Source: Clostridia bacterium
Lineage (GTDB): Bacteria; Bacillota; Clostridia; Christensenellales; CAG-917
DNA length: 64,000 bases
Assembly: GCA_900763875.1 (NCBI GenBank)
Contig: CAAFLX010000001.1
Coordinates: forward strand, 10,752 to 74,751
Direction of reading: 5' to 3'
The translations under genes were made by a program, and so were the position numbers. The notes under the pieces are model-generated. The model was not told where the DNA came from, did no database searches, and saw only the letters and a list, made by a program, of their open reading frames with translations. Below are positions 28,571 through 54,398 of the stretch, in pieces (positions within the stretch are counted from its first letter, which is position 1; each line of letters starts with the position of its first letter).

Positions 28571-28598
28571 TTGAAAATATCACCGCTTGTGGTATAAT
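28571..28598 (+). promoter_or_regulatory. Promoter with extended -10 (TTGAAA-16 bp-TGgTATAAT)
   Basis: TTGAAA at 28571-28576 and TGGTATAAT at 28590-28598. ACGGAGGG follows, then ATG 28629. Confidence 0.55.
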
Positions 28599-28628
28599 AC
28601 ATATAATAAAGAATATACGGAGGGCCCC

Positions 28629-29744
28629 ATGGGACTTATCAAAAGACAACTCCTCAAAGTTATTGGTTGGGAAGACAGTTCCCAAAATACGCTAGTCCAC
28701 AAATTTCAGTATGACGACAGATATGCGATCATGAAAGGATCGGAGCTTATCGTTCGTCCCTCGCAAGCCGCAATTTTTGTGTACCGCGGCAGCGTGTGCG
28801 ACGTTTTCACCGAGGGCAGTTGGAAGCTCGATGAAGGTTCTACCCCCGTACTCACCGCGCTCGCAAACTGGAAATATGCCTTTGAAAACCCCAAGCAAAT
28901 CGACGTGTACTTCGTCAATTTGCGCCGCTTTACGCAAATGAAGTGGGGCACGCCCAACGCCATTATGATGCGCGACAAGGATTTTGGCATGATTCGCATC
29001 TCGGGCCATGGCGAATATTCCTTCCACGTGATGAACCCCGAGCTGTTTATGAAGGAGTGCTTTGGCACAATCCATTCATTCAAGACCGAGGACATCAGTG
29101 AGCATCTCAAATCAATCGTCATTGCGCAACTTACGGATATGCTCGGCGAGTGCGAAATCCCCGCGCTCGAGCTTGCCGCCAACTATCTTGAAATCGGCGA
29201 CACCGTATGCAAGCAAGCAAAGCCCAGATTCAACGAGCTTGGTCTTGACATCGATTCGGTGCTTGTGCGCAACTTCAAGCTCCCCGAACCTGTTGAAAAA
29301 GCAATGGACAAGCGCACCACGCTCGGCGTATTCGACGGCAAAATGGGCGAGTACGCTCAATATGAATCCGTGCAGGCAATGCGCGACGCGGCAAAGAATC
29401 CCGGTATGGGCGGCATGTTTGGCGCGGCAGGCATAGGTCTTGGCATGGGTGCAAGAGTGGGCAACCAATTCGCTCAAAACCTCGACGAGGCTCAAAGCGC
29501 AAAAACCAAGTGCGCAAAATGCGGAGCTTCCATAAAAGCAGGCTCGAAATTCTGCCCCGAATGCGGAGCAAAAGTGGGCGGTGAAGCCACCGTCAAATGC
29601 TCCAAGTGCGGCGCGGACGTGCCTCAAAACTCCAAGTTCTGCCCCGAATGCGGTCAACCTATGAGCGTTGTTTGCTCAAAGTGCGGCGCAAAGGTGAAAG
29701 CAGGCATGAAATTCTGCCCCGAATGCGGAGCTAAAATAGGCTGA
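28629..29744 (+). CDS. SPFH (stomatin/prohibitin/flotillin-like) domain protein with three C-terminal zinc ribbons (COG4260 / YdjI-like)
   Basis: Start moved to ATG 28629, behind GGAGGG. The N-terminal roughly 270 aa resemble the SPFH 'virion core protein-like' family. The C-terminus carries 3 tandem copies of KCxKCGAxxxxxxKFCPECGxK (29505-29741). Confidence 0.75.
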   Translation: MGLIKRQLLKVIGWEDSSQNTLVHKFQYDDRYAIMKGSELIVRPSQAAIFVYRGSVCDVFTEGSWKLDEGSTPVLTALANWKYAFENPKQIDVYFVNLRRFTQMKWGTPNAIMMRDKDFGMIRISGHGEYSFHVMNPELFMKECFGTIHSFKTEDISEHLKSIVIAQLTDMLGECEIPALELAANYLEIGDTVCKQAKPRFNELGLDIDSVLVRNFKLPEPVEKAMDKRTTLGVFDGKMGEYAQYESVQAMRDAAKNPGMGGMFGAAGIGLGMGARVGNQFAQNLDEAQSAKTKCAKCGASIKAGSKFCPECGAKVGGEATVKCSKCGADVPQNSKFCPECGQPMSVVCSKCGAKVKAGMKFCPECGAKIG

Positions 29745-38164: not shown

Positions 38165-38193
38165 AAAACACGCATTTTATATGCGTGTTTTTT
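38165..38193. terminator. Bidirectional hairpin terminator between convergent genes
   Basis: AAAACACGCAT (38165-38175) pairs with ATGCGTGTTTT (38181-38191). A-run on one side and T-run on the other. Confidence 0.7.
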
Positions 38194-38931: not shown

Positions 38932-39103
38932 ATTCTGCTCCTAAAAAAATGATAGCACGGATTTTTCGTTTTTTCCACACTTTTTGCCTATGCGCTTGAT
39001 TTTATTAAACTATTGTCAAAAATCGCTCTTGAAAAGGGGGATAAAATGTTTTATACTCAACATAGAATCATATATCTACAATAGATATATCGGAGGGAAT
39101 GTT

Positions 39104-40213
39104 ATGAAGAGAACTTATCCGAGTTGGATCGAAGGTCAACTCAACAGCAAACAAACCGAGTACACCAAGCCCACAAAGCTGCTCGACGATGACGGCAAAT
39201 TGCTCTCGCCGGGTTGGGCAAGGCACAACGTTTTCGACTATGATCGCTCAAAGTCGAAACCTGCAAATCGCAAAAAAGAATGGGATTTCTATCAAATCTC
39301 CAACGGCGAGTTTATGGTGCAAATGAATTTTGCCAACATCTCGATCGGCGGATTTGCGCAAGCGTCCATCACCGACCTTCGCCGCCCGCATCGCAAGAGT
39401 AAAATCCACAGCGGTTCGATTATGGAATTGACCGCAATCTTCCTTGGCGGCAAAAAACACATACTCCCAAAAAAAGGCGACGAACCCAACGTTCTTGACC
39501 AAACCGTGGGCAAAACGCATATGAAAGTCGTCACCGAAACCGAGCGTCGAACGATGTATTTCAAGGGCAAATACAAGGGCAAAGACGTTGAGGCAAACTT
39601 CACCATGGACATCATGCCGGGGCTTGAAAACATCACCACCGTTCTCCCGTTTGAGGGCAAGCCCACAAGATACTTTATGACCACCAAGCAAAACTGCATG
39701 CCTTGCGAAGGCACTTTCCGTTGGGGGGACAAGGTTTGGAAATTCGACAAAAAAGACACCTTTGCTTTCCTCGATTGGGGCAGAGTCAACACTCCCTATC
39801 AAATGGTTTGGTACTGGGGCAACGGCTCGAAAGTCGTTCAAACCCCCGACGGCAAAGACCATATGTTCGGTTTTGAAATCACCTGGGGCATCGGCGACGA
39901 ATCGCACGCCACCGAAACCGCCATTTTCTGGGATGGCAAAGCCCACAAGTTCGGCCCCGTTGACGTTGAAGTTTTCCCCAAACCCGACAAGTTTATGCAG
40001 CCTTGGCACTTCATCTCCCAAGACGGGCGTTTCGACTTCACCATGACTCCTTTTTACGACCACCACAGCGACCTCAACGCTCTCAACATTCTTCGCATGC
40101 ACTGCCACCAACTCCACGGCATCTGGAACGGCACCGCAATTCTTGATGACGGCACAAAGGTTGAGGTGAGGGATATGTATGCGTTTTGCGAATACTGCGA
40201 AAACAAATGGTAA
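39104..40213 (+). CDS. DUF2804 family protein
   Basis: Start moved to ATG 39104, behind GGAGGG (39092-39097). KEWDFYQI-type motif. 369 aa. Confidence 0.65.
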   Translation: MKRTYPSWIEGQLNSKQTEYTKPTKLLDDDGKLLSPGWARHNVFDYDRSKSKPANRKKEWDFYQISNGEFMVQMNFANISIGGFAQASITDLRRPHRKSKIHSGSIMELTAIFLGGKKHILPKKGDEPNVLDQTVGKTHMKVVTETERRTMYFKGKYKGKDVEANFTMDIMPGLENITTVLPFEGKPTRYFMTTKQNCMPCEGTFRWGDKVWKFDKKDTFAFLDWGRVNTPYQMVWYWGNGSKVVQTPDGKDHMFGFEITWGIGDESHATETAIFWDGKAHKFGPVDVEVFPKPDKFMQPWHFISQDGRFDFTMTPFYDHHSDLNALNILRMHCHQLHGIWNGTAILDDGTKVEVRDMYAFCEYCENKW

Positions 40214-40214
40214 A

Positions 40215-40337
40215 AAAATGCGATATTTGGCGAACAACTGTGTCAGGTGCGATTGTTCAAACAGTCACGTACAATGAAGTACGCTCCTGTCTGCTCAATC
40301 GCAACCTTCCTTGTTCTTCATCCAAATATCGCATTTT
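40215..40337 (+). repeat. Structured hairpin repeat, copy A (conserved loops, locus-specific stems)
   Basis: The outer stem AAAATGCGATATTTGG pairs with CCAAATATCGCATTTT. The inner stem GTGCGATTG pairs with CAATCGCAAC. The conserved blocks are CGAACAACTGTGTCAG, AAACAGTCACGTACAATGAAGTACGCTCCTGTCT and CTTCCTTGTTCTTCAT. It starts 2 nt after the stop codon. Confidence 0.8.
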
Positions 40338-40495
40338 ACAAACGCTATTGAGCGAATAGCTGTGTCAGAGTCCGCCACCTAAACAGTCACGTACAAGAAG
40401 TACGCTCCTGCCTATTGCTCAAACTGCGCCGAGGCAACGGCAACACGCGGTTGCGTATTGCCGAGAGCCTCGCTTGTTCTCGCAATCACTAACCG
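40338..40495 (+). repeat. Structured hairpin repeat, copy B (degenerate, with an insertion)
   Basis: It shares CGAATAGCTGTGTCAG and AAACAGTCACGTACAAGAAGTACGCTCCTGCCT with the other copies. The 3' half is interrupted by extra small hairpins (CGAGGC...GCCTCG, GCAAC..GTTGC). Confidence 0.6.
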
Positions 40496-40600
40496 CGCAA
40501 CCACTCTTCACTCTCAAAATAAGATGGACAAAAACTCAAACCGCAATTCCGTGCGAGTGCTTGCTTGGTGTTGGCGTGCTCCGCACGCAAGTGGATAAAA

Positions 40601-40680
40601 AATGATATCGCCTACGGCGGTGATATCACCGCGTGATGATATCGTGCGTTGCACGATGATATCCAAACGCTGTTTGGATT
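40601..40680 (+). repeat. Four TGATATC direct repeats interleaved with mini-hairpins
   Basis: TGATATC recurs 4 times at 16-20 bp spacing. The copies are separated by short palindromes, and the series ends with ATCCAAAC-GCT-GTTTGGAT. Confidence 0.55.
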
Positions 40681-41159: not shown

Positions 41160-41226
41160 AGAAAAAATTTACTATTCCGAGGCTATGCGAGTGCAATCGC
41201 GAGGCGTTAGGAGTGACGGAGGTCGT

Positions 41227-42732
41227 ATGGCAACTTATTTCAATCAACCCTCGAGAACGTTCAACGAGTATTTGCTCATTCCCGGCTACACGGACGAGAA
41301 CTGCATTCCCTCCAACGTGAGCCTGAAAACTCCGCTCGTCAAGTTCAAAAAGGGCGAACAACCTGCAATTTCACTCAATATCCCGATGACTTCTGCCATC
41401 ATGCAATCGGTGAGCAACGACACGCTTGCAATCGCACTGGCAAGAGAAGGCGGGATTTCTTTTATCTTCGGGTCTCAATCAATCGAGAGCGAGGCGGAGA
41501 TGGTCAGACGTGTCAAAAACTACAAGGCAGGATTTGTCGTGTCAGACAGCAACCTCACCCCCGAGCATACTCTTGCAGACGTATTTGCGCTCGTGGCTGA
41601 AAAAGGACACAACACAATCCCCATCACCGATGACGGCACGTCCAACGGCAAGTTGCTTGGTATGGTCACAAGCCGTGACTATCGCGTGAGCCGTATGTCG
41701 CCCGACGTCAAAATCAAGGAGTTTATGACTCCGTTTGAAAAGCTCATCACTGCGCCCCAAAACACAACGCTCATCGAGGCAAACGACATCATTTGGGATC
41801 ACAAACTCAACTCTATCCCCATCATCGACGACGAGGGCAGACTATTGTATATGGTCTTCCGCAAGGACTACGACCAACACAAAATGAACCCCGACGAGTT
41901 GCTTGACTCAAACAAGAGATATATGGTTGGCGCAGGCATCAACACTCTCGACTACGAACAACGCGTCCCCGCACTCATCGAGGCAGGAGCGGACGTGCTT
42001 TGCATCGACTCGTCCGAGGGCTACACGATTTGGCAAAAGAAAACCCTCGATTATATCCGCAAGAACTACGGCGACAAAGTCAAGGTCGGCGCAGGCAACG
42101 TCGTTGACAAGGACGGCTTCAACTTCCTTGCGGACTGCGGCGCGGACTTCATCAAAGTGGGCATCGGCGGCGGCTCTATCTGCATCACGCGCGAGCAAAA
42201 AGGCATCGGCAGAGGTCAAGCGACCGCTCTTATCGAGGTTGCCGAGGCTCGTGACGAATACTTCAAAAAGACGGGCGTTTATATCCCCATTTGCTCGGAC
42301 GGCGGCATCGTGCAAGACTACCATATGACTCTTGCTCTTGCAATGGGTGCGGACTTCCTTATGCTCGGCAGATACTTTGCTCGTTTCGACGAAAGCCCCA
42401 CCAACAAGCTAGTCATCAACGGCAACTACGTCAAAGAGTACTGGGGAGAGGGCAGCAACCGCGCAAGAAACTGGCAACGTTACGACCTCGGCGGCAAGAG
42501 CGGTCTTGGCTTTGAAGAGGGCGTTGACAGCTACGTCCCCTATGCAGGCAGCCTCAAAGACAACGTCCGCAAGAGCCTCTACAAGGTCAAATCCACGATG
42601 TGCAACTGTGGCTCGACAACACTCGAAGCACTCCACAAAGACGCCAAAATGACTCTCGTTTCGGCAATCAGCATCAAGGAAGGCGGCGCGCACGACGTGA
42701 TTCAAAAGAACACCACTTATGCAAACAACTGA
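41227..42732 (+). CDS. guaB: IMP dehydrogenase
   Basis: Start moved to ATG 41227, behind GGAGG (41216-41220). CBS-pair insertion and catalytic loop [11 protein letters not shown]. 501 aa. Confidence 0.95.
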
Positions 42733-49711: not shown

Positions 49712-49739
49712 AAAAACGGCACTTTTCAGTGCCGTTTTC
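49712..49739. terminator. Bidirectional terminator between convergent genes
   Basis: AAAACGGCAC-TTTTCA-GTGCCGTTTT, a perfect 10-bp stem with A/T runs on both sides. Confidence 0.8.
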
Positions 49740-51562: not shown

Positions 51563-52492
51563 ATGCCATTAGTCACATCAACCGAAATGTTCAAAAAAGC
51601 ATATGCAGGCGGTTACGCAATCGGTGCGTTCAACGTCAACAATATGGAAATCATCCAAGGTATCGTTGAAGCCGCAACTGAGGAGCAAGCTCCACTCATT
51701 CTTCAGGTTTCCTCCGGCGCAAGAAAATACGCAAACACAACCTACCTCACCAAGATGGTTGAAGCGGCAGTCGAAACCAGCGGTCTTCCCATCTGCTTGC
51801 ACCTCGACCACGGCGATACTTTTGCGCTTTGCAAGGACTGCGTTGACAGCGGCTTTACTTCCGTTATGATCGACGCAAGCGCACATCCGTTTGCAGAAAA
51901 CATCTCAATCACAAAGCAAGTTGTCGAGTACGCTCACGACCACGGCGTTGTCGTCGAGGCGGAACTTGGCAAGCTCGCAGGCATCGAGGACGCTGTCAAC
52001 GTCTCGGCAAAAGACGCTCAATTCACCGATCCCGACCAAGTCGAAGAGTTTGTCCACAAGACCGGCGTCGATTCCTTGGCAATCGCAATCGGCACGTCCC
52101 ACGGCGCATACAAATTCAAAGGTCAACCGCAACTGCGTTTCGACATCCTCGAAGAAGTCAGCAAGCGTTTGCCCGGTTTCCCCATCGTCTTGCACGGCGC
52201 GTCTTCCGTTCCTCAAGACCTCGTTGCCAAAATCAACCAATACGGCGGCAGTATGCCCGGCGCACAAGGCGTCCCCGAAGAGATGCTCCGCAAAGCAGCG
52301 TCCATGGCTGTTTGCAAAATCAACATCGACTCCGACCTCAGACTCGCCGTCACCGCCACCATTCGTGAGCACTTTGCTCTCAATCCCGCCCACTTCGACC
52401 CCCGCCAATACCTCGGCCCGGCAAGAGAAGCAGTGAAACAAGTGGTGAAGCATAAGTTGGTGGATGTGCTTGGCTGCAACGGCAAAGCCTAA
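51563..52492 (+). CDS. fba: Class II fructose-1,6-bisphosphate aldolase
   Basis: Start moved to ATG 51563, behind GGAGG (51551-51555). LHLDHG and VLHGASS motifs. 309 aa. Confidence 0.95.
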   Translation: MPLVTSTEMFKKAYAGGYAIGAFNVNNMEIIQGIVEAATEEQAPLILQVSSGARKYANTTYLTKMVEAAVETSGLPICLHLDHGDTFALCKDCVDSGFTSVMIDASAHPFAENISITKQVVEYAHDHGVVVEAELGKLAGIEDAVNVSAKDAQFTDPDQVEEFVHKTGVDSLAIAIGTSHGAYKFKGQPQLRFDILEEVSKRLPGFPIVLHGASSVPQDLVAKINQYGGSMPGAQGVPEEMLRKAASMAVCKINIDSDLRLAVTATIREHFALNPAHFDPRQYLGPAREAVKQVVKHKLVDVLGCNGKA

Positions 52493-52614
52493 AACGACGC
52501 TATTGAGCGAATAACTTCGTCAGAGCCTGCCCCATAAACAGTCACGTACAACGAGTACGCTCCTGTCTATGTTGGCAGGCTCTTCCTTGTTCTTCATCTC
52601 AATATCGTCGTTTT
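52491..52614 (+). repeat. Structured hairpin repeat, copy C
   Basis: The outer stem AAAACGACGCTATTGAG pairs with CTCAATATCGTCGTTTT. The inner stem AGCCTGCC pairs with GGCAGGCT. The conserved blocks are the same as in copy A. It starts at the fba stop codon. Confidence 0.8.
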
Positions 52615-52720
52615 AACCACAGCAAATAACTTCGTCAGAGCCTGCCTCATAAACATTCACGTACACAGAGTGCGTTCCTGTCTATATGTTGGCAGGCTCT
52701 TTTTCGTTCTTGATTTCACT
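52615..52720 (+). repeat. Structured hairpin repeat, copy D (diverged)
   Basis: CAAATAACTTCGTCAG, the AGCCTGCC/GGCAGGCT stem, AAACATTCACGTACACAGAGTGCGTTCCTGTCT, and CTTTTTCGTTCTTGAT. No outer stem. Confidence 0.65.
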
Positions 52721-52761: not shown

Positions 52762-52790
52762 TTGACAGGGTGTGGCCGAAATGATATTAT
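52762..52790 (+). promoter_or_regulatory. Promoter TTGACA-17 bp-TATTAT with TG extension
   Basis: TTGACA at 52762-52767 and TGATATTAT at 52782-52790. Confidence 0.55.
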
Positions 52791-52940: not shown

Positions 52941-54398
52941 ATGAAAAGGCTACTTTTATGTTTGTTGTCACTTGTTTGTGCCGTATGCTTGTTTGCTGCA
53001 TGCAACAAAGATACACGATATAAGATAACGTTTCAGGACTTGTCCGCACTGCCCGATGGCATAGAGAGCGTCAAAAACGGACAGGGAACTATGGCGAGCG
53101 GAAGCGGAAACGTCGAAACCATCTATTTTACGTCTGGCAAAGGCGGCTCGTTTTTTGTGACGGTCACGTTCAAAGACGGCTACGATAAAGGCGACTTTAA
53201 GATTTTTGCCAACGGAAAGGAAGCGACGATCAAAAACGACAACGACAAAGTCGTTGATTACGAAGTTTATCCGACTTCCGACGTCCACATTACTTTTTCG
53301 GGCAAGCCCACATTAAAAAGTTTCAACGTGACGGCGACCTATGACGACAACGATCAGGAGCAAGTTTTAGACGAGTTTTCCTATGAATTGAAGTGCGTAT
53401 TCGGAACGGAAGAATCTGCGCCCGTAAAAGCAGCCACTCTTGCAGAATTGAAAAACAAAATCAATTCGGACATAAAAACCGTCAAATACGGCACGAAAAT
53501 CACTATAACGGCTACACATACGGGTGAAATTGCTTTTCCTGCCGACAATACGATTCATTGTCAATATTCGGGACATTACAAGTATGTTGAAAAAACAACA
53601 AAAATCGTCGGCGATAAACAGCTAAAAACTTGGGAGATTGCGGTTGTGTCCGACGTTGAAATACAACTGCGCCTCAGCTCTACCGCACAATCGTATTCGC
53701 GCAGCGTATACACTGACACAACGGTTTTGTATAGCGGAGTGTATGACGGCGATTTCAACGAGATAGCAACGCTCCAAGCACTTTACGATACGAATGGCAA
53801 AATTTACGCGCCGCTCCGCGATAACGCCGTTGTCCGTCATCTTGCCGAAAAATATAAAAAACTTACTATAAACGGCAAAACCGCGGACGGTAAATTTTTC
53901 TATAACCAAGCGGATAAACGTTGGTATGTTGAGCTCGACAAACCCTCAACCTACCCAAACGGAAGGGCGGACGGTTATGACGTTGATTTTGCCAAAGGCG
54001 TGGACGATTATATGAGCGGCGACTCCGCCTTGACGCGCGACAACATCGAGTTTAAGTCGCAGATTATGGACTGGGGCGAAAACCAATATCTCATGGTATG
54101 TGACGAATACGATGGTTATCGGCTCAAAAACAATAGATATTCGCTTGGTTTATGCTTTGCAAGCACCACGAACGATATCAAGGTGATTGTCAACGGCACA
54201 AAAGAAGTCGTTTTCCGCAACATACAAACGGTTGACGAAGAAACCAAAGAGTTTGCAACGATTTATCGTCGCGGCGGAAATAATGCCGAATATAACGGAA
54301 GTTACGGGGGTAACAACGGCAAAGACGAAACGCACAGAATTGCTTTCGATCCGTCAACAATCGGAGAAATAACGCGCGTTGAAATCGTGCTTGTTTAA
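52941..54398 (+). CDS. Hypothetical lipoprotein (485 aa)
   Basis: Signal peptide with the lipobox LFAAC. I recognise no domains. Confidence 0.75.
   Translation: MKRLLLCLLSLVCAVCLFAACNKDTRYKITFQDLSALPDGIESVKNGQGTMASGSGNVETIYFTSGKGGSFFVTVTFKDGYDKGDFKIFANGKEATIKNDNDKVVDYEVYPTSDVHITFSGKPTLKSFNVTATYDDNDQEQVLDEFSYELKCVFGTEESAPVKAATLAELKNKINSDIKTVKYGTKITITATHTGEIAFPADNTIHCQYSGHYKYVEKTTKIVGDKQLKTWEIAVVSDVEIQLRLSSTAQSYSRSVYTDTTVLYSGVYDGDFNEIATLQALYDTNGKIYAPLRDNAVVRHLAEKYKKLTINGKTADGKFFYNQADKRWYVELDKPSTYPNGRADGYDVDFAKGVDDYMSGDSALTRDNIEFKSQIMDWGENQYLMVCDEYDGYRLKNNRYSLGLCFASTTNDIKVIVNGTKEVVFRNIQTVDEETKEFATIYRRGGNNAEYNGSYGGNNGKDETHRIAFDPSTIGEITRVEIVLV

Follow-up and report, generated by a model that had tools for sequence, protein, structure and literature searches.

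Two long hairpins stand in tandem behind the stop codon of a DUF2804 gene in a Clostridia bacterium, and a second pair stands behind the class II fructose-bisphosphate aldolase gene on the same contig. What kind of element is repeated here, and does it act as RNA or as DNA? A first-pass annotation made from the letters alone had proposed a structured RNA with conserved loops and covarying stems. We examined this proposal in the window (the whole 64-kb stretch of DNA analyzed here), in other genomes and in metagenomes.

Hairpin repeats in the window

A covariance-model search of the window matched only the four copies A, B, C and D, and the 16-nt core of the repeat occurs there four times (0.6 expected by chance). 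The unit is a rod of four helices, P1–P4, in which P1 and P3 are variable and the internal-loop blocks and the apex are conserved. P1 is typically 17–18 bp long, has the stop codon at its base and follows the family consensus (T)AAAAC.GCGCTATTTGG. Next come P2, whose 7 bp include one conserved mismatch, an internal loop of about 6 by 7 nt that is also conserved, and the variable P3 (10–14 bp). The conserved apex starts with a short helix, followed by an internal loop that contains UC, and ends in the 6-bp P4 and a variable loop.

Table 1. Positions of the repeats, their parts and neighboring features in the window
Feature	Position	Strand	Basis
DUF2804 gene	38984-40213	+	ORF list; Pfam PF10974, E 6e-87
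TAA stop codon of DUF2804 gene	40211-40213	+	ORF list, Pfam, sequence
Copy A, intact, 3' of DUF2804 gene	40215-40337	+	Sequence, fold, covariance model (122.4 bits)
Copy A, P1	40215-40230 / 40322-40337	+	Sequence
Copy A, left block (P2 + internal loop, CGAACAACTGTGTCAG)	40231-40246	+	Sequence
Copy A, P3 (inner stem)	40247-40255 / 40296-40305	+	Sequence
Copy A, apical core AAACAGTCACGTAC..GTACGCTCCTG	40259-40289	+	Sequence
Copy A, P4 mini-hairpin CGTAC / GTACG	40268-40272 / 40279-40283	+	Sequence
Copy A, right block TTCCTTGTTCTTCAT	40307-40321	+	Sequence
Copy B, degenerate tandem follower of A	about 40340-40482	+	Alignment; covariance model (46.6 bits, 40352-40438)
Aldolase gene (class II fructose-bisphosphate aldolase)	51563-52492	+	Pfam PF01116, start codon
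TAA stop codon of aldolase gene (first three bases of copy C)	52490-52492	+	Sequence
Copy C, intact	52490-52615	+	Sequence, fold, covariance model (140.6 bits)
Copy C, P1	52490-52507 / 52598-52615	+	Sequence
Copy C, left block	52508-52523	+	Sequence
Copy C, P3	52524-52535 / 52569-52581	+	Sequence
Copy C, core	52536-52565	+	Sequence
Copy C, right block	52582-52597	+	Sequence
Copy D, degenerate tandem follower of C	52621-52716	+	Alignment; covariance model (69.9 bits, model positions 33-125 only)
Strong promoter-like site (TTGACA, 17-nt spacer, TG, TATTAT)	52762-52790	+	Promoter scan
Gene downstream of the promoter-like site	52941-54398	+	
Plain terminators	49713-49738; 38165-38191		Terminator scan

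The sequence, alignments and folds confirmed everything that the annotation had stated about the sequences of the two loci, including the mini-hairpin in the core and an outer stem laid out like a terminator, with an A-run, a GC-rich stem and a T-run. The intact copies A and C have their unpaired blocks in common and differ in their stems, each of which is self-complementary. The predicted fold of copy A has an energy of −50.9 kcal/mol (z = −9.1) and that of copy C −56.5 kcal/mol (z = −10.7), and none of 200 shuffled sequences folded as well in either case. The second copy of each pair had been described as degenerate, and the alignment and the weaker covariance-model scores of copies B and D agree with this. 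Copy B retains the left arm of P1 (40340-40352), the left block and the core (40381-40410), lacks the P3 and P1 right arms, and carries an additional GC-rich hairpin (approximately 40429-40473); its fold reaches a z of only −1.5. Copy D has lost P1, and its core is mutated (AAACATTCACGTAC..GTGCGTTCCTG). Its P3 is of the same type as that of copy C, indicating that copy D is a tandem duplicate. From the positions of the two stop codons, the hairpins start 0–2 nt past the stop codon or on it, in line with the earlier statement that they begin within 2 nt of it. Copy C is identical in two other assemblies of the same species, but since these assemblies are identical at the aldolase locus compared, they are not informative about strain-level polymorphism.

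Family size and hosts

Many further copies of the repeat were found in both genomes and metagenomes. A scan for the core pattern detected 83 stretches in species-representative genomes and at least 120 stretches in metagenomes, mostly from the human gut, and the covariance model identified 104 copies within 595 kb. The apex of 28–30 nt is identical in hosts with GC contents of 32–57%, which are labelled as several phyla. The annotation had left open a match to an Rfam family or a known MITE. Rfam 15 gave no matches over the whole window at the gathering thresholds; at E values up to 10 nothing credible covered the copies, the best scores (11–15 bits) belonging to models of eukaryotic snoRNAs and lncRNAs, and at eight further loci, including variant types, nothing overlapped the elements. 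Searches of phages, plasmids and viral contigs found neither the core nor a parent insertion sequence. A full-text literature search for the core, as DNA or RNA and on either strand, returned unrelated primers only, although a MITE already described would have surfaced there, and keyword searches returned general papers, none on this element. The repeats thus form a large family of hairpins of about 130 bases, present in uncultured gut Clostridia and some other anaerobes, which is apparently undescribed.

Covariation and strand

Among the 104 copies, standard base pairs occupy 94.9% of the predicted pair positions, compared with 69.1% in shuffles, and the proportion falls to 36–44% when the partners are slid by 1–3 columns. 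A MAFFT alignment, which is not fitted to the structure, gave 91.0% versus 73.8%. The nested helices had been said to change in sequence around conserved loops with their pairing kept, and 29 of the 32 pairs indeed change on both sides. The apical helices also covary between the subtypes (ACGUAC/GUACGU, AUGUAC/GUACAU, and GCGUAU/AUACGC). The center carries the most information and the ends the least, approximately 0 bits outside alignment columns 20 to 149.

The two strands are not equivalent. Because the minus-strand folds of copies A and C are better by about 16 kcal/mol, the antisense strand was suspected at first. In the commonest apex, type I, the antisense fold is better by about 8 kcal/mol through tandem G-A and G-U pairs. 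On the plus strand, the variant apices have a conserved U-G wobble, and there they fold equally well or better. In P3, G-U exceeds A-C on the plus strand (38 versus 14); in P1 there is no such enrichment (38 versus 40), and the mismatches look like neutral noise. We rejected the antisense strand as the general functional strand, since the asymmetry is confined to the type I blocks, the variants fold at least as well on the plus strand, and the orientation follows the gene. A small open reading frame on the minus strand (ATG AAG AAC AAG ...) was also discarded because of an early stop in copy A and an apical loop varying from 3 to 8 nt. Likenesses noticed by eye to boxA, the anti-Shine-Dalgarno sequence, the C/D box, the K-turn and the sarcin-ricin loop were set aside as too short and not conserved across the subtypes.

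Position relative to genes

Eighty of 105 copies lie directly past the stop codon of a co-oriented open reading frame, and 13 more are tandem followers. The sense orientation noted at the two loci of the window holds for all copies: among about 100, none is antisense to its upstream gene. The orientation tracks the gene and not the direction of replication, and at three loci with copies on both strands, each stands behind its own gene. The core most often lies 41–43 nt from the stop codon in genomes, with the same peak in metagenomes, and the distant variants are still anchored at 42–57 nt. For about one-fourth of the copies, the open reading frame ends within P1 or P2, 21–33 nt before the core. 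In tandem followers, the base of P1 frequently contains a TAA that does not serve as a stop codon, suggesting that the TAA is inherited as part of the unit.

The copies stand behind housekeeping genes that are not related to each other (58 proteins with 85 Pfam families), and the flanking genes, among them those for aldolase, IMP dehydrogenase, ribosomal proteins, release factor and UvrA, are in conserved order. In one Peptococcaceae genome, two copies are located between rplF and rplR, inside the spc ribosomal-protein operon. P1 of these copies begins 15 nt past the stop codon, and its T-run and A-run, on the 5' and 3' sides respectively, are in the opposite order from the Clostridia type.

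Conservation and turnover

In ten orthologous pairs, the element is 95% identical (1193/1255), whereas the four-fold sites of the adjacent genes are 67% identical (209/310). The identity of the stems between orthologues is bimodal: a stem is either nearly identical or replaced as a whole. Loci L002 and L055, for example, differ in the P1 stem and the stop codon and agree at 89 of 90 interior positions. The same stem types occur at unrelated loci in many combinations. Whole-stem replacement in orthologues and the recurrence of stem types led us to conclude that much of the covariation reflects the swapping of modules and not stepwise compensatory mutation. The earlier view of covariation as the hallmark of a functional RNA is therefore premature: the covariation is very strong, but much of it comes from exchange between copies. 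The outer stems, regarded earlier as locus-specific, are not strictly so, since the left outer arm of copy B is the same as that of copy C.

Other signs of turnover were found. Gene-proximal copies are intact and distal copies degenerate; arrays at different loci have a common spacer; and two related genomes contain near-identical copies with this kind of common spacer behind three different genes. At one locus, the order of main-type and variant copies is exchanged, and a remnant of the 3' end of the gene separates them. Small nested inserts are present. Some copies at stop codons are present in one species and missing from a sister species whose upstream protein is 97–100% identical over the last 120 residues. 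Direct repeats spanning the P1 boundaries of 53 copies had a mean maximal length of 3.75 nt, compared with 3.73 nt (sd 0.12) for permuted partners, and this test, together with inspection by eye, led us to reject TA, TAA and TTAA as target-site duplications. No transposase was found beside any copy, and in a weak test, a tblastn search of the 83 loci (595 kb) with an approximate IS200 TnpA query, nothing scored better than E = 0.09. Classical transposition finds no support, given the lack of target-site duplications and the ends being the least conserved part.

Likeness to transcription terminators

The outer half of P1 consists of A4, a GC-rich stem and T4, the same design as that of the plain bidirectional terminators of the window. 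The likeness to intrinsic terminators, including families of conserved sequence like that of the mycobacterial TRIT motif, lies in the succession of A-run, GC-rich stem and T-run that follows a gene directly, and it extends to genomic position: in an aldolase orthologue of 88% identity, a plain terminator lies downstream of the stop codon in place of the missing element. Between the stop codon of the aldolase gene and the next promoter, the terminator scanner, which cannot score a "loop" of 95 nt, reported no separate classical terminator, only short stems within copies C and D. In 34 of 62 cases, the open reading frame that comes next behind an array is convergent; in the remaining ones it is usually more than 100 nt away. 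The element differs from intrinsic terminators in that its "loop" is a conserved folded domain of 95 nt, its U-run comprises only about four bases, which are able to pair with the A-run, and the variant inside the spc operon has its T-run and A-run on the sides opposite to those of the Clostridia type. The annotation had also considered insertion of a small mobile element into terminator hairpins. Insertion into the loop of a ready-made terminator fits poorly with a P1 that has a family consensus and a fixed length and whose base is mostly at the stop codon; the four plain terminators checked in the window lie from approximately 3 to more than 70 nt from the flanking stop codons.

Comparison with described repeats

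ERIC sequences (IRU) are imperfect palindromes of about 127 nt that lie in transcribed intergenic regions and form a long RNA hairpin. Their copy number varies largely between related genomes, they have been reported to be more conserved than neighboring synonymous sites, and their orientation affects the fate of the mRNA. The present element resembles ERIC in length (about 130 nt), in its conservation (95% against 67% at four-fold sites) and in its location in transcribed 3' regions. It differs in having no sequence similarity to ERIC, in a host of another phylum, and in copies that are all sense to the upstream gene and anchored at the stop codon. The stems vary and the loops are conserved here, whereas the whole sequence is conserved in ERIC; tandem arrays are common, and the TA target-site duplication is absent.

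REP, BIME and REPIN sequences are extragenic palindromes mobilized by RAYT transposases, often located near stop codons or operon ends, clustered, and persistent over long vertical descent; the host uses them as 3' stabilizers of mRNA or as terminators. REP units measure 20–40 nt and have a GTAG motif and a conserved stem, and the orientation alternates within BIME clusters. The copies described here, in contrast, are about 130 nt long and arranged head to tail, it is their apex and loops that are conserved, and their consensus contains no GTAG motif; the weak tblastn search of the loci brought up no RAYT gene. Correia elements (NEMIS) and bacterial MITEs of 100–155 nt form long hairpins in transcripts near genes, with possible functions in termination or as RNase III sites. 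Size, hairpin in the transcript and proximity to genes are similar in our element, but it has none of the conserved terminal inverted repeats, target-site duplications and insertion in both orientations that characterize MITEs.

Interpretation

An array with its start at the stop codon and the same sense as the gene is, by its position, transcribed as the 3' end of that mRNA, and the arrays most likely form the folded 3' end of the mRNA of the upstream gene. As the best explanation, held tentatively and with slightly less than even confidence, we propose a repeat family of the REP/ERIC kind that serves as a 3'-end or terminator hairpin of mRNA, has loops that bind a factor, and is propagated by tandem duplication and by recombination among its copies. 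The gene-proximal copy would form the 3' end of the transcription unit and work as an intrinsic-terminator stem, as a barrier to 3' exonucleases, or as both, and the conserved loops and apex may be the docking site for a putative trans-acting factor. The family would spread and turn over in the manner of REP or ERIC repeats: units may be duplicated in tandem at the gene-proximal end and exchanged by recombination or gene conversion through the conserved blocks, and distal copies would decay. In favor of this reading we count the conserved structure of a large family, its ties to gene and transcript, the ends of transcription units at which copies lie, the bimodal stem identity and common spacers that point to turnover, and signs of selection, namely the conservation of orthologous copies above four-fold sites, the intact state of gene-proximal copies, the G-U excess in P3 and the plus-strand folding of the variant apices. 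Termination, stabilization and factor binding are functions that we infer from these features of the sequence and its positions.

Several observations speak against this 3'-end reading. P1 shows no excess of G-U and its mismatches resemble noise; the antisense fold of the type I apex suits a reading at the level of DNA or of an antisense transcript; the U-run is short and pairable with the A-run; and a strong terminator would be harmful at the position of the copies in the spc operon. The model also leaves unexplained the identity of the apex across hosts of 32–57% GC and the acquisition of copies exactly at stop codons. A more novel reading is a new class of cis-acting RNA module, or RNA-and-DNA module, anchored at stop codons, whose near-invariant apex AAACAGUCACGUAC..GUACGCUCCUG is read by a dedicated factor that either couples translation termination to 3'-end formation or installs copies at stop codons. 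We consider such a module unlikely, and we know of no bacterial mobile element with stop-codon-specific targeting.

Should the 3'-end interpretation be correct, a substantial group of uncultured Clostridia of the human gut would share one folded module that marks where many of their core genes end. Such a module would make it possible to annotate transcription-unit ends in metagenome-assembled genomes by sequence, would add a new family to the RNA databases, and would offer, in its invariant apex, a defined bait for the protein that reads it. Stop-codon anchoring, strict sense orientation and the wholesale swapping of stems are not explained by any described repeat family, and these three features make the questions familiar from REP and ERIC, namely whether such repeats are selfish or functional and how their sites are chosen, testable in a new lineage.

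The main rival to the 3'-end reading is a purely selfish, non-autonomous mobile DNA in the manner of MITEs or REPINs, a possibility to be taken seriously, albeit doubtful. The apex and loop blocks would then be recognized by a transposase, HUH nuclease or recombinase whose gene lies elsewhere, the hairpin would matter in single-stranded DNA, and position and orientation would merely reflect the insertions that survived. This would account for a multi-copy family with subfamilies whose P3 and P1 types recur at unrelated loci and genomes, for the near-identical copies behind three different genes, for the copies new at a stop codon in one species and absent from its sister, for the nested inserts, and for the copies within an essential operon. 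The better antisense fold of the type I apex and the missing G-U excess in P1 are consistent with it too, and an apex that stays the same despite very different host GC suggests horizontal spread or an element-encoded partner. The lack of target-site duplications argues against mobile DNA, as does a conservation profile with the center highest and the ends lowest, the reverse of a MITE. A near-palindromic transposon should be found in both orientations, yet no copy is antisense, and the orientation is set by the gene, not by replication. Moreover, no transposase is encoded near any copy, the core was not found in viral contigs, phages or plasmids, and orthologous copies are far more conserved than synonymous sites.

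The remaining explanations assign the hairpin other roles. In most copies the stop codon precedes the P2 block by 15–17 nt, roughly the length of mRNA that lies under a ribosome beyond the A site. P1 is of fixed length, typically 17–18 bp, and is rooted at the stop codon. A ribosome terminating there would unwind its left arm and thereby release the right arm and the U-run, so that translation of the upstream gene would decide between termination, read-through and decay of the mRNA. The anchoring that persists in the distant variants and the separate copies kept by convergent genes are compatible with such an RNA switch, and it has been proposed that stable structures right after stop codons govern termination and re-initiation (PMC7518266). 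Against this switch, deduced from the geometry, speak the one-fourth of copies in which the open reading frame ends in P1 or P2, the displaced P1 of the Peptococcaceae copies and the unused TAA of tandem followers; we regard the switch as improbable. A very improbable alternative is a trans-acting small RNA, a stable hairpin of approximately 100–130 nt freed from the 3' UTR by processing, which would base-pair with its target mRNAs through the pyrimidine-rich strands CUUUCUUGUUCUUCAUC and GCUCCUGUCU. These conserved 3'-side strands are CU-rich, partly unpaired in the fold and common to many copies, and the end of a transcription unit, where the element lies, is the typical position of small RNAs derived from 3' UTRs. 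Dozens of loci with one seed sequence would be unusual for a regulator, however, and CUC is replaced by UAGG or UGGG in the variant apices, indicating that the supposed seed is not conserved.

Finally, the hairpin might be a recombination site read as folded single-stranded DNA, comparable to integron attC sites, at which hairpin tips or adjacent genes are exchanged. We find this hardly credible, and identity with attC was rejected on consensus and genomic context. In most copies, the boxes GAATAAC and GTTCTTC do not fit the core sites RYYYAAC (R'') and GTTRRRY (R'), and they lie inside P1 and not at the ends. The pattern of conservation is reversed, as the apex is the most conserved part here and the variable part in attC; the neighbors are core housekeeping genes in conserved order instead of cassette arrays; and no integrase was seen nearby. 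The likeness lies elsewhere: attC sites conserve structure above sequence, follow the stop codon of a co-oriented gene and fall in a comparable size range, all of which is seen in our element, and in L002 and L055 both arms of a stem have been exchanged together with the rest identical.

Architecture and covariation of the element

The sequence readings given in the first-pass annotation for copies A and C were confirmed against the window sequence, and each copy folds into a single long hairpin (-50.9 kcal/mol, z -9.1, and -56.5 kcal/mol, z -10.7, respectively), with 0 of 200 shuffles equally stable in either case. Copy B has no right arm left in either stem and has an additional GC-rich hairpin, and in copy D the outer stem is gone and the core is mutated. 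The 16-nt apical core occurs four times in the window versus 0.6 expected, and copies A-D are the only covariance-model matches in the 64 kb.

The covariance model (R1) was built from a MAFFT alignment of 71 full copies (A2), and searching 595 kb of fetched loci with it yielded 104 plus-strand copies (alignment A4). The consensus structure is a rod. The outer stem P1 (17-18 bp; (T)AAAAC.GCGCTATTTGG pairing with CCAAATATCGCG.GTTTT(A)) leads into P2 (7 bp; GAAUAAC with GUUCUUC, including a conserved U-C mismatch), an internal loop (UGCGUC facing CUUUCUU), P3 (10-14 bp, beginning AGAGCC and otherwise variable), and an apex composed of a 4-6 bp helix, a UC-containing internal loop, the 6-bp P4 (ACGUAC with GUACG), and a loop of 3-8 nt. 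Information content reaches zero right at the ends of P1. The earlier proposal that nested helices change in sequence and keep their pairing around conserved loops was borne out: in the model-fitted alignment, standard pairs occupy 94.9% of the pair positions (69.1% in shuffles, and 36-44% when partners were slid by 1-3 columns), with both-sided changes in 29 of 32 pairs. When P2 and further apical pairs were added, the MAFFT alignment gave 91.0%, 73.8%, and 35-44%, respectively. Copies scoring lower against the model show apex subtypes whose apical helices covary as well (for example, CAAC-UC-AUGUAC..GUACAU-UA-GGGUUG, CUCG-UC-ACGUAC..GUACGU-UG-GGCGAG, and ACAG-UC-GCGUAU..AUACGC-UA-GGCUGU). 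Loose clustering of the 104 copies gave ~32 types of P3 and ~53 of P1.

Coordinates of element copies and other features (window positions unless a locus is named)
Feature	Position	Strand	Remarks
Long ORF	1533-28301	+	8,922 codons; numerous internal repeats of 25-40 nt
Tandem repeats (family D5)	29511-29741	+	three, ~69 nt each, within ORF 28587-29744
Plain bidirectional terminator	38165-38191		AAAACACGCAT-ATAAA-ATGCGTGTTTT
TAA of DUF2804 gene	40211-40213		followed by copy A
Copy A	40215-40337
Copy B	about 40340-40482		degenerate, head-to-tail behind copy A
Gut-1-like match (RF01706)	40600-40667	+	~110 nt past copy B
IMP dehydrogenase gene	41185-42732		~520 nt after the Gut-1-like match
Plain bidirectional terminator	49713-49738		AAAACGGCAC-TTTTCA-GTGCCGTTTT
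TAA of class II fructose-bisphosphate aldolase gene	52490-52492		first bases of copy C
Copy C	52490-52615
Copy D	52621-52716		degenerate, head-to-tail behind copy C
Strong promoter-like site	52762-52790		downstream of aldolase stop codon
Two copies between rplF and rplR	L070 3499-3830		Peptococcaceae genome, spc ribosomal-protein operon
Spacer-sharing arrays	L061 1-760; L060 1600-2250; L011 1-600; L044 1-330	-
Nested insert in a variant copy	L066 about 2080-2130
Nested insert in a variant copy	L012, downstream of 6858	-

Family size and host range

The further copies that the first-pass annotation had proposed to seek were found in number. In species-representative genomes, 83 stretches match the core pattern AAACAKTCACGTAC-N3-8-GTRCGYTCCTG, the majority from uncultured gut Clostridia (UMGS1170, CM_BacCAG2167.82, Firmicutes CAG:475, a Hadza gut genome, UMGS1688, UMGS1042, UMGS1043, TM09-10, and a Christensenella sp. 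are among the carriers). The identical core with divergent flanks is present in genomes labelled Opitutales, Alphaproteobacteria, Berkiella, Peptococcaceae, Caccopulliclostridium, and Bacteroidaceae. The metagenome scan found at least 120 stretches with the core; among the matches listed, most are from human gut, and some, from other metagenome assemblies, are divergent and rich in AT. The apex is unchanged across hosts of 32% to 57% GC, and such sharing of one apex by hosts of very different GC content is unusual. Viral contigs, phages, and plasmids gave no match to the core, the proposed Rfam comparison returned no family in Rfam 15, and the core sequence was not found in the searchable literature; the family appears to be undescribed so far.

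Stop-codon anchoring and orientation

The position at stop codons and the orientation are the most striking result. A stop codon of a long co-oriented ORF lies 21-57 nt before the core in 66 of the 77 assessable exact-core copies, the stop-to-core distance of exact-core genome copies has its mode at 41-43 nt, and the metagenome copies, among the matches listed, independently give the same peaks. In a set of 105 copies (all model matches plus window copy B, which is below the cut-off of that search), 80 directly follow a co-oriented stop codon, 13 stand in tandem behind another copy, and of the 11 left over most lie behind a variant copy scoring under the model threshold; none of the 105 is antisense to its own upstream gene. 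P1 typically reaches 16-18 nt past the P2 block, and its base usually holds the stop codon; a smaller number of the ORFs end instead at a TAA within P1 (CTAAAYRG variants) or P2 (GAATAAC). In three species (loci L046, L065, and L016), the UvrA frame traverses the left arm of P1, where an out-of-frame TGA stands at the base; the frame stops at the TAA within the GAATAAC box, and the element thus encodes its final six residues (GVLFGE). At three 8-kb loci, convergent gene pairs included, both strands have copies, and since each copy lies behind its own gene, orientation goes with the gene and not with replication direction. Upstream of the copies stand core genes that are unrelated to one another (58 proteins with 85 Pfam families in all); among them are those for aldolase, PEP carboxykinase, the gamma subunit of pyruvate:ferredoxin oxidoreductase, aminoacyl-tRNA synthetases, ribosomal proteins L1 and L6, a release factor, UvrA, and MinE.

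Conservation, stem replacement, and arrays

Between orthologous loci, either the element is nearly unchanged or a whole stem is replaced. Across ten pairs without such replacement, which were selected and are not all independent of one another, the element is 95% identical (1193/1255 positions), versus 67% (209/310) for four-fold sites in the last 100 upstream codons, and even the "variable" stems are kept (P1 93%, P3 96%). In the other pairs, P1 and/or P3 show ~45% identity with blocks and apex unchanged. For example, L002 and L055, whose upstream proteins are identical across the last 100 residues and whose stop codons differ (TGA in one, TAA in the other), match at 16/36 positions in P1 and 89/90 in the interior. 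Conserved loops with swappable stems are an unusual combination.

Main-type and variant copies have exchanged order behind the same gene between species, and a duplicated, decayed version of the final codons of that gene (GCA AGA TTT TTT TAA) precedes the displaced copy. L012 has a variant copy adjoining the stop codon; L015, L052, and L062, with upstream proteins 97-100% identical across the last 120 residues, have none there. In two related genomes (UMGS1688 and a BRZ_LA genome), arrays of two to four near-identical units with a period of ~170 nt share a 45-nt spacer (ACACGTTTCTTTCCGTGGGGGAGAGAAGACGC.GGATTGTCG.TGTTCTC), and unit and spacer stand behind three different genes, each ending AAG TAA. 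As a rule, the copy nearest the gene is intact and those farther from it are decayed; no target-site duplication was found at the element ends. Two variant copies carry, at the identical point in the left internal loop, a nested insert of ~50 nt (ACGCGATTGAC..GTAGCAATCGCTATTCCGTCACTTCGTTCCTTA) that has a small hairpin of its own. The insert is absent from the orthologous L077 copy, and its GTCACTTCGTTCC part is found again elsewhere in L077, which suggests a second, smaller repeat family targeting the element.

Ends of transcription units

By crude ORF calls, the next ORF past the last array copy is convergent in 34 of 62 cases and otherwise usually more than 100 nt off. Between the aldolase stop codon and the promoter-like site, the terminator scan found no separate classical terminator and flagged only short stems within copies C and D; an aldolase orthologue (88% identity) has a plain terminator 3' of its stop codon in place of the element. 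The outer half of P1 shares an A4, GC-stem, T4 design with plain terminators of the window such as those at 38165-38191 and 49713-49738; the latter has almost the same sequence as the base of P1 in the L028 and L079 copies. The two spc-operon copies of L070 argue against a simple strong terminator. They occupy a gap of ~330 nt, which is the same in a matching fermentation-metagenome contig (L089), and in their P1 the two runs have traded places relative to the Clostridia type, the T-run lying 5' and the A-run 3'. In spc operons, rplF and rplR normally almost adjoin.

Interpretation

The element behaves like a REP- or ERIC-type repeat, being dispersed, array-forming, and recombining between copies, and in its working it is closest to ERIC or REP elements and to conserved-sequence terminator families. 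The first copy of an array is under strong purifying selection, and its position and orientation only make sense for a transcript; from this we infer that the element would make up a folded 3' terminus on the mRNA of the upstream gene. Our preferred reading, held tentatively and at somewhat less than even confidence, is a repeat of the REP/ERIC kind serving as an mRNA 3'-end or terminator hairpin with factor-binding loops. The outer half of P1 is built like a plain bidirectional terminator of this genome, and the conserved P2, internal loop, and apex are a candidate docking platform for a putative factor. Stop-codon anchoring with strict sense orientation is itself unusual. A switch coupled to translation termination is an improbable reading of the element; that the copies are a source of trans-acting small RNAs is more doubtful still.

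The strand on which the fold is selected bears on the main alternative, a purely selfish DNA element read by a putative enzyme, which we regard as unlikely. The antisense strand of copies A and C folds ~16 kcal/mol better than the sense strand, and over the 71 aligned copies the advantage averages ~13 kcal/mol. This asymmetry lies entirely within the conserved blocks of type I, the commonest apex type, where additional tandem G-A and G-U pairs form on the antisense strand; no asymmetry is seen in the variable stems of the 71 copies. In variant apices, the sense-strand fold is equal or better, with "UC" pairing with "GG" via a conserved U-G wobble, and the ratio of G-U to A-C is 38:14 in P3 and 38:40 in P1. 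Taken with the strict sense orientation, the strand evidence favours selection on the transcript; the support is weaker than the raw covariation numbers imply. An attC-like recombination site is highly improbable, and the element does not match the defining features of attC itself in core sites and genomic context. It does not match those of a MITE either, with its lack of target-site duplication, ends that are not the conserved part, and single orientation, or those of REP/BIME in unit size, motif, and alternating orientation; the element fails membership in every Rfam family.

Other features of the window

The Gut-1-like match is full-length and sub-threshold (40.5 bits, with the gathering score at 50; E 3e-6 for a search of 1.1 kb) and is made of three hairpins with GATATC-like motifs. 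The long ORF at 1533-28301 presumably encodes a giant repetitive surface protein; the covariance-model search of the window found no element copy behind it. Each of the ~69-nt repeats encodes a zinc-ribbon-like C-x2-C ... C-P-x-C-G motif.
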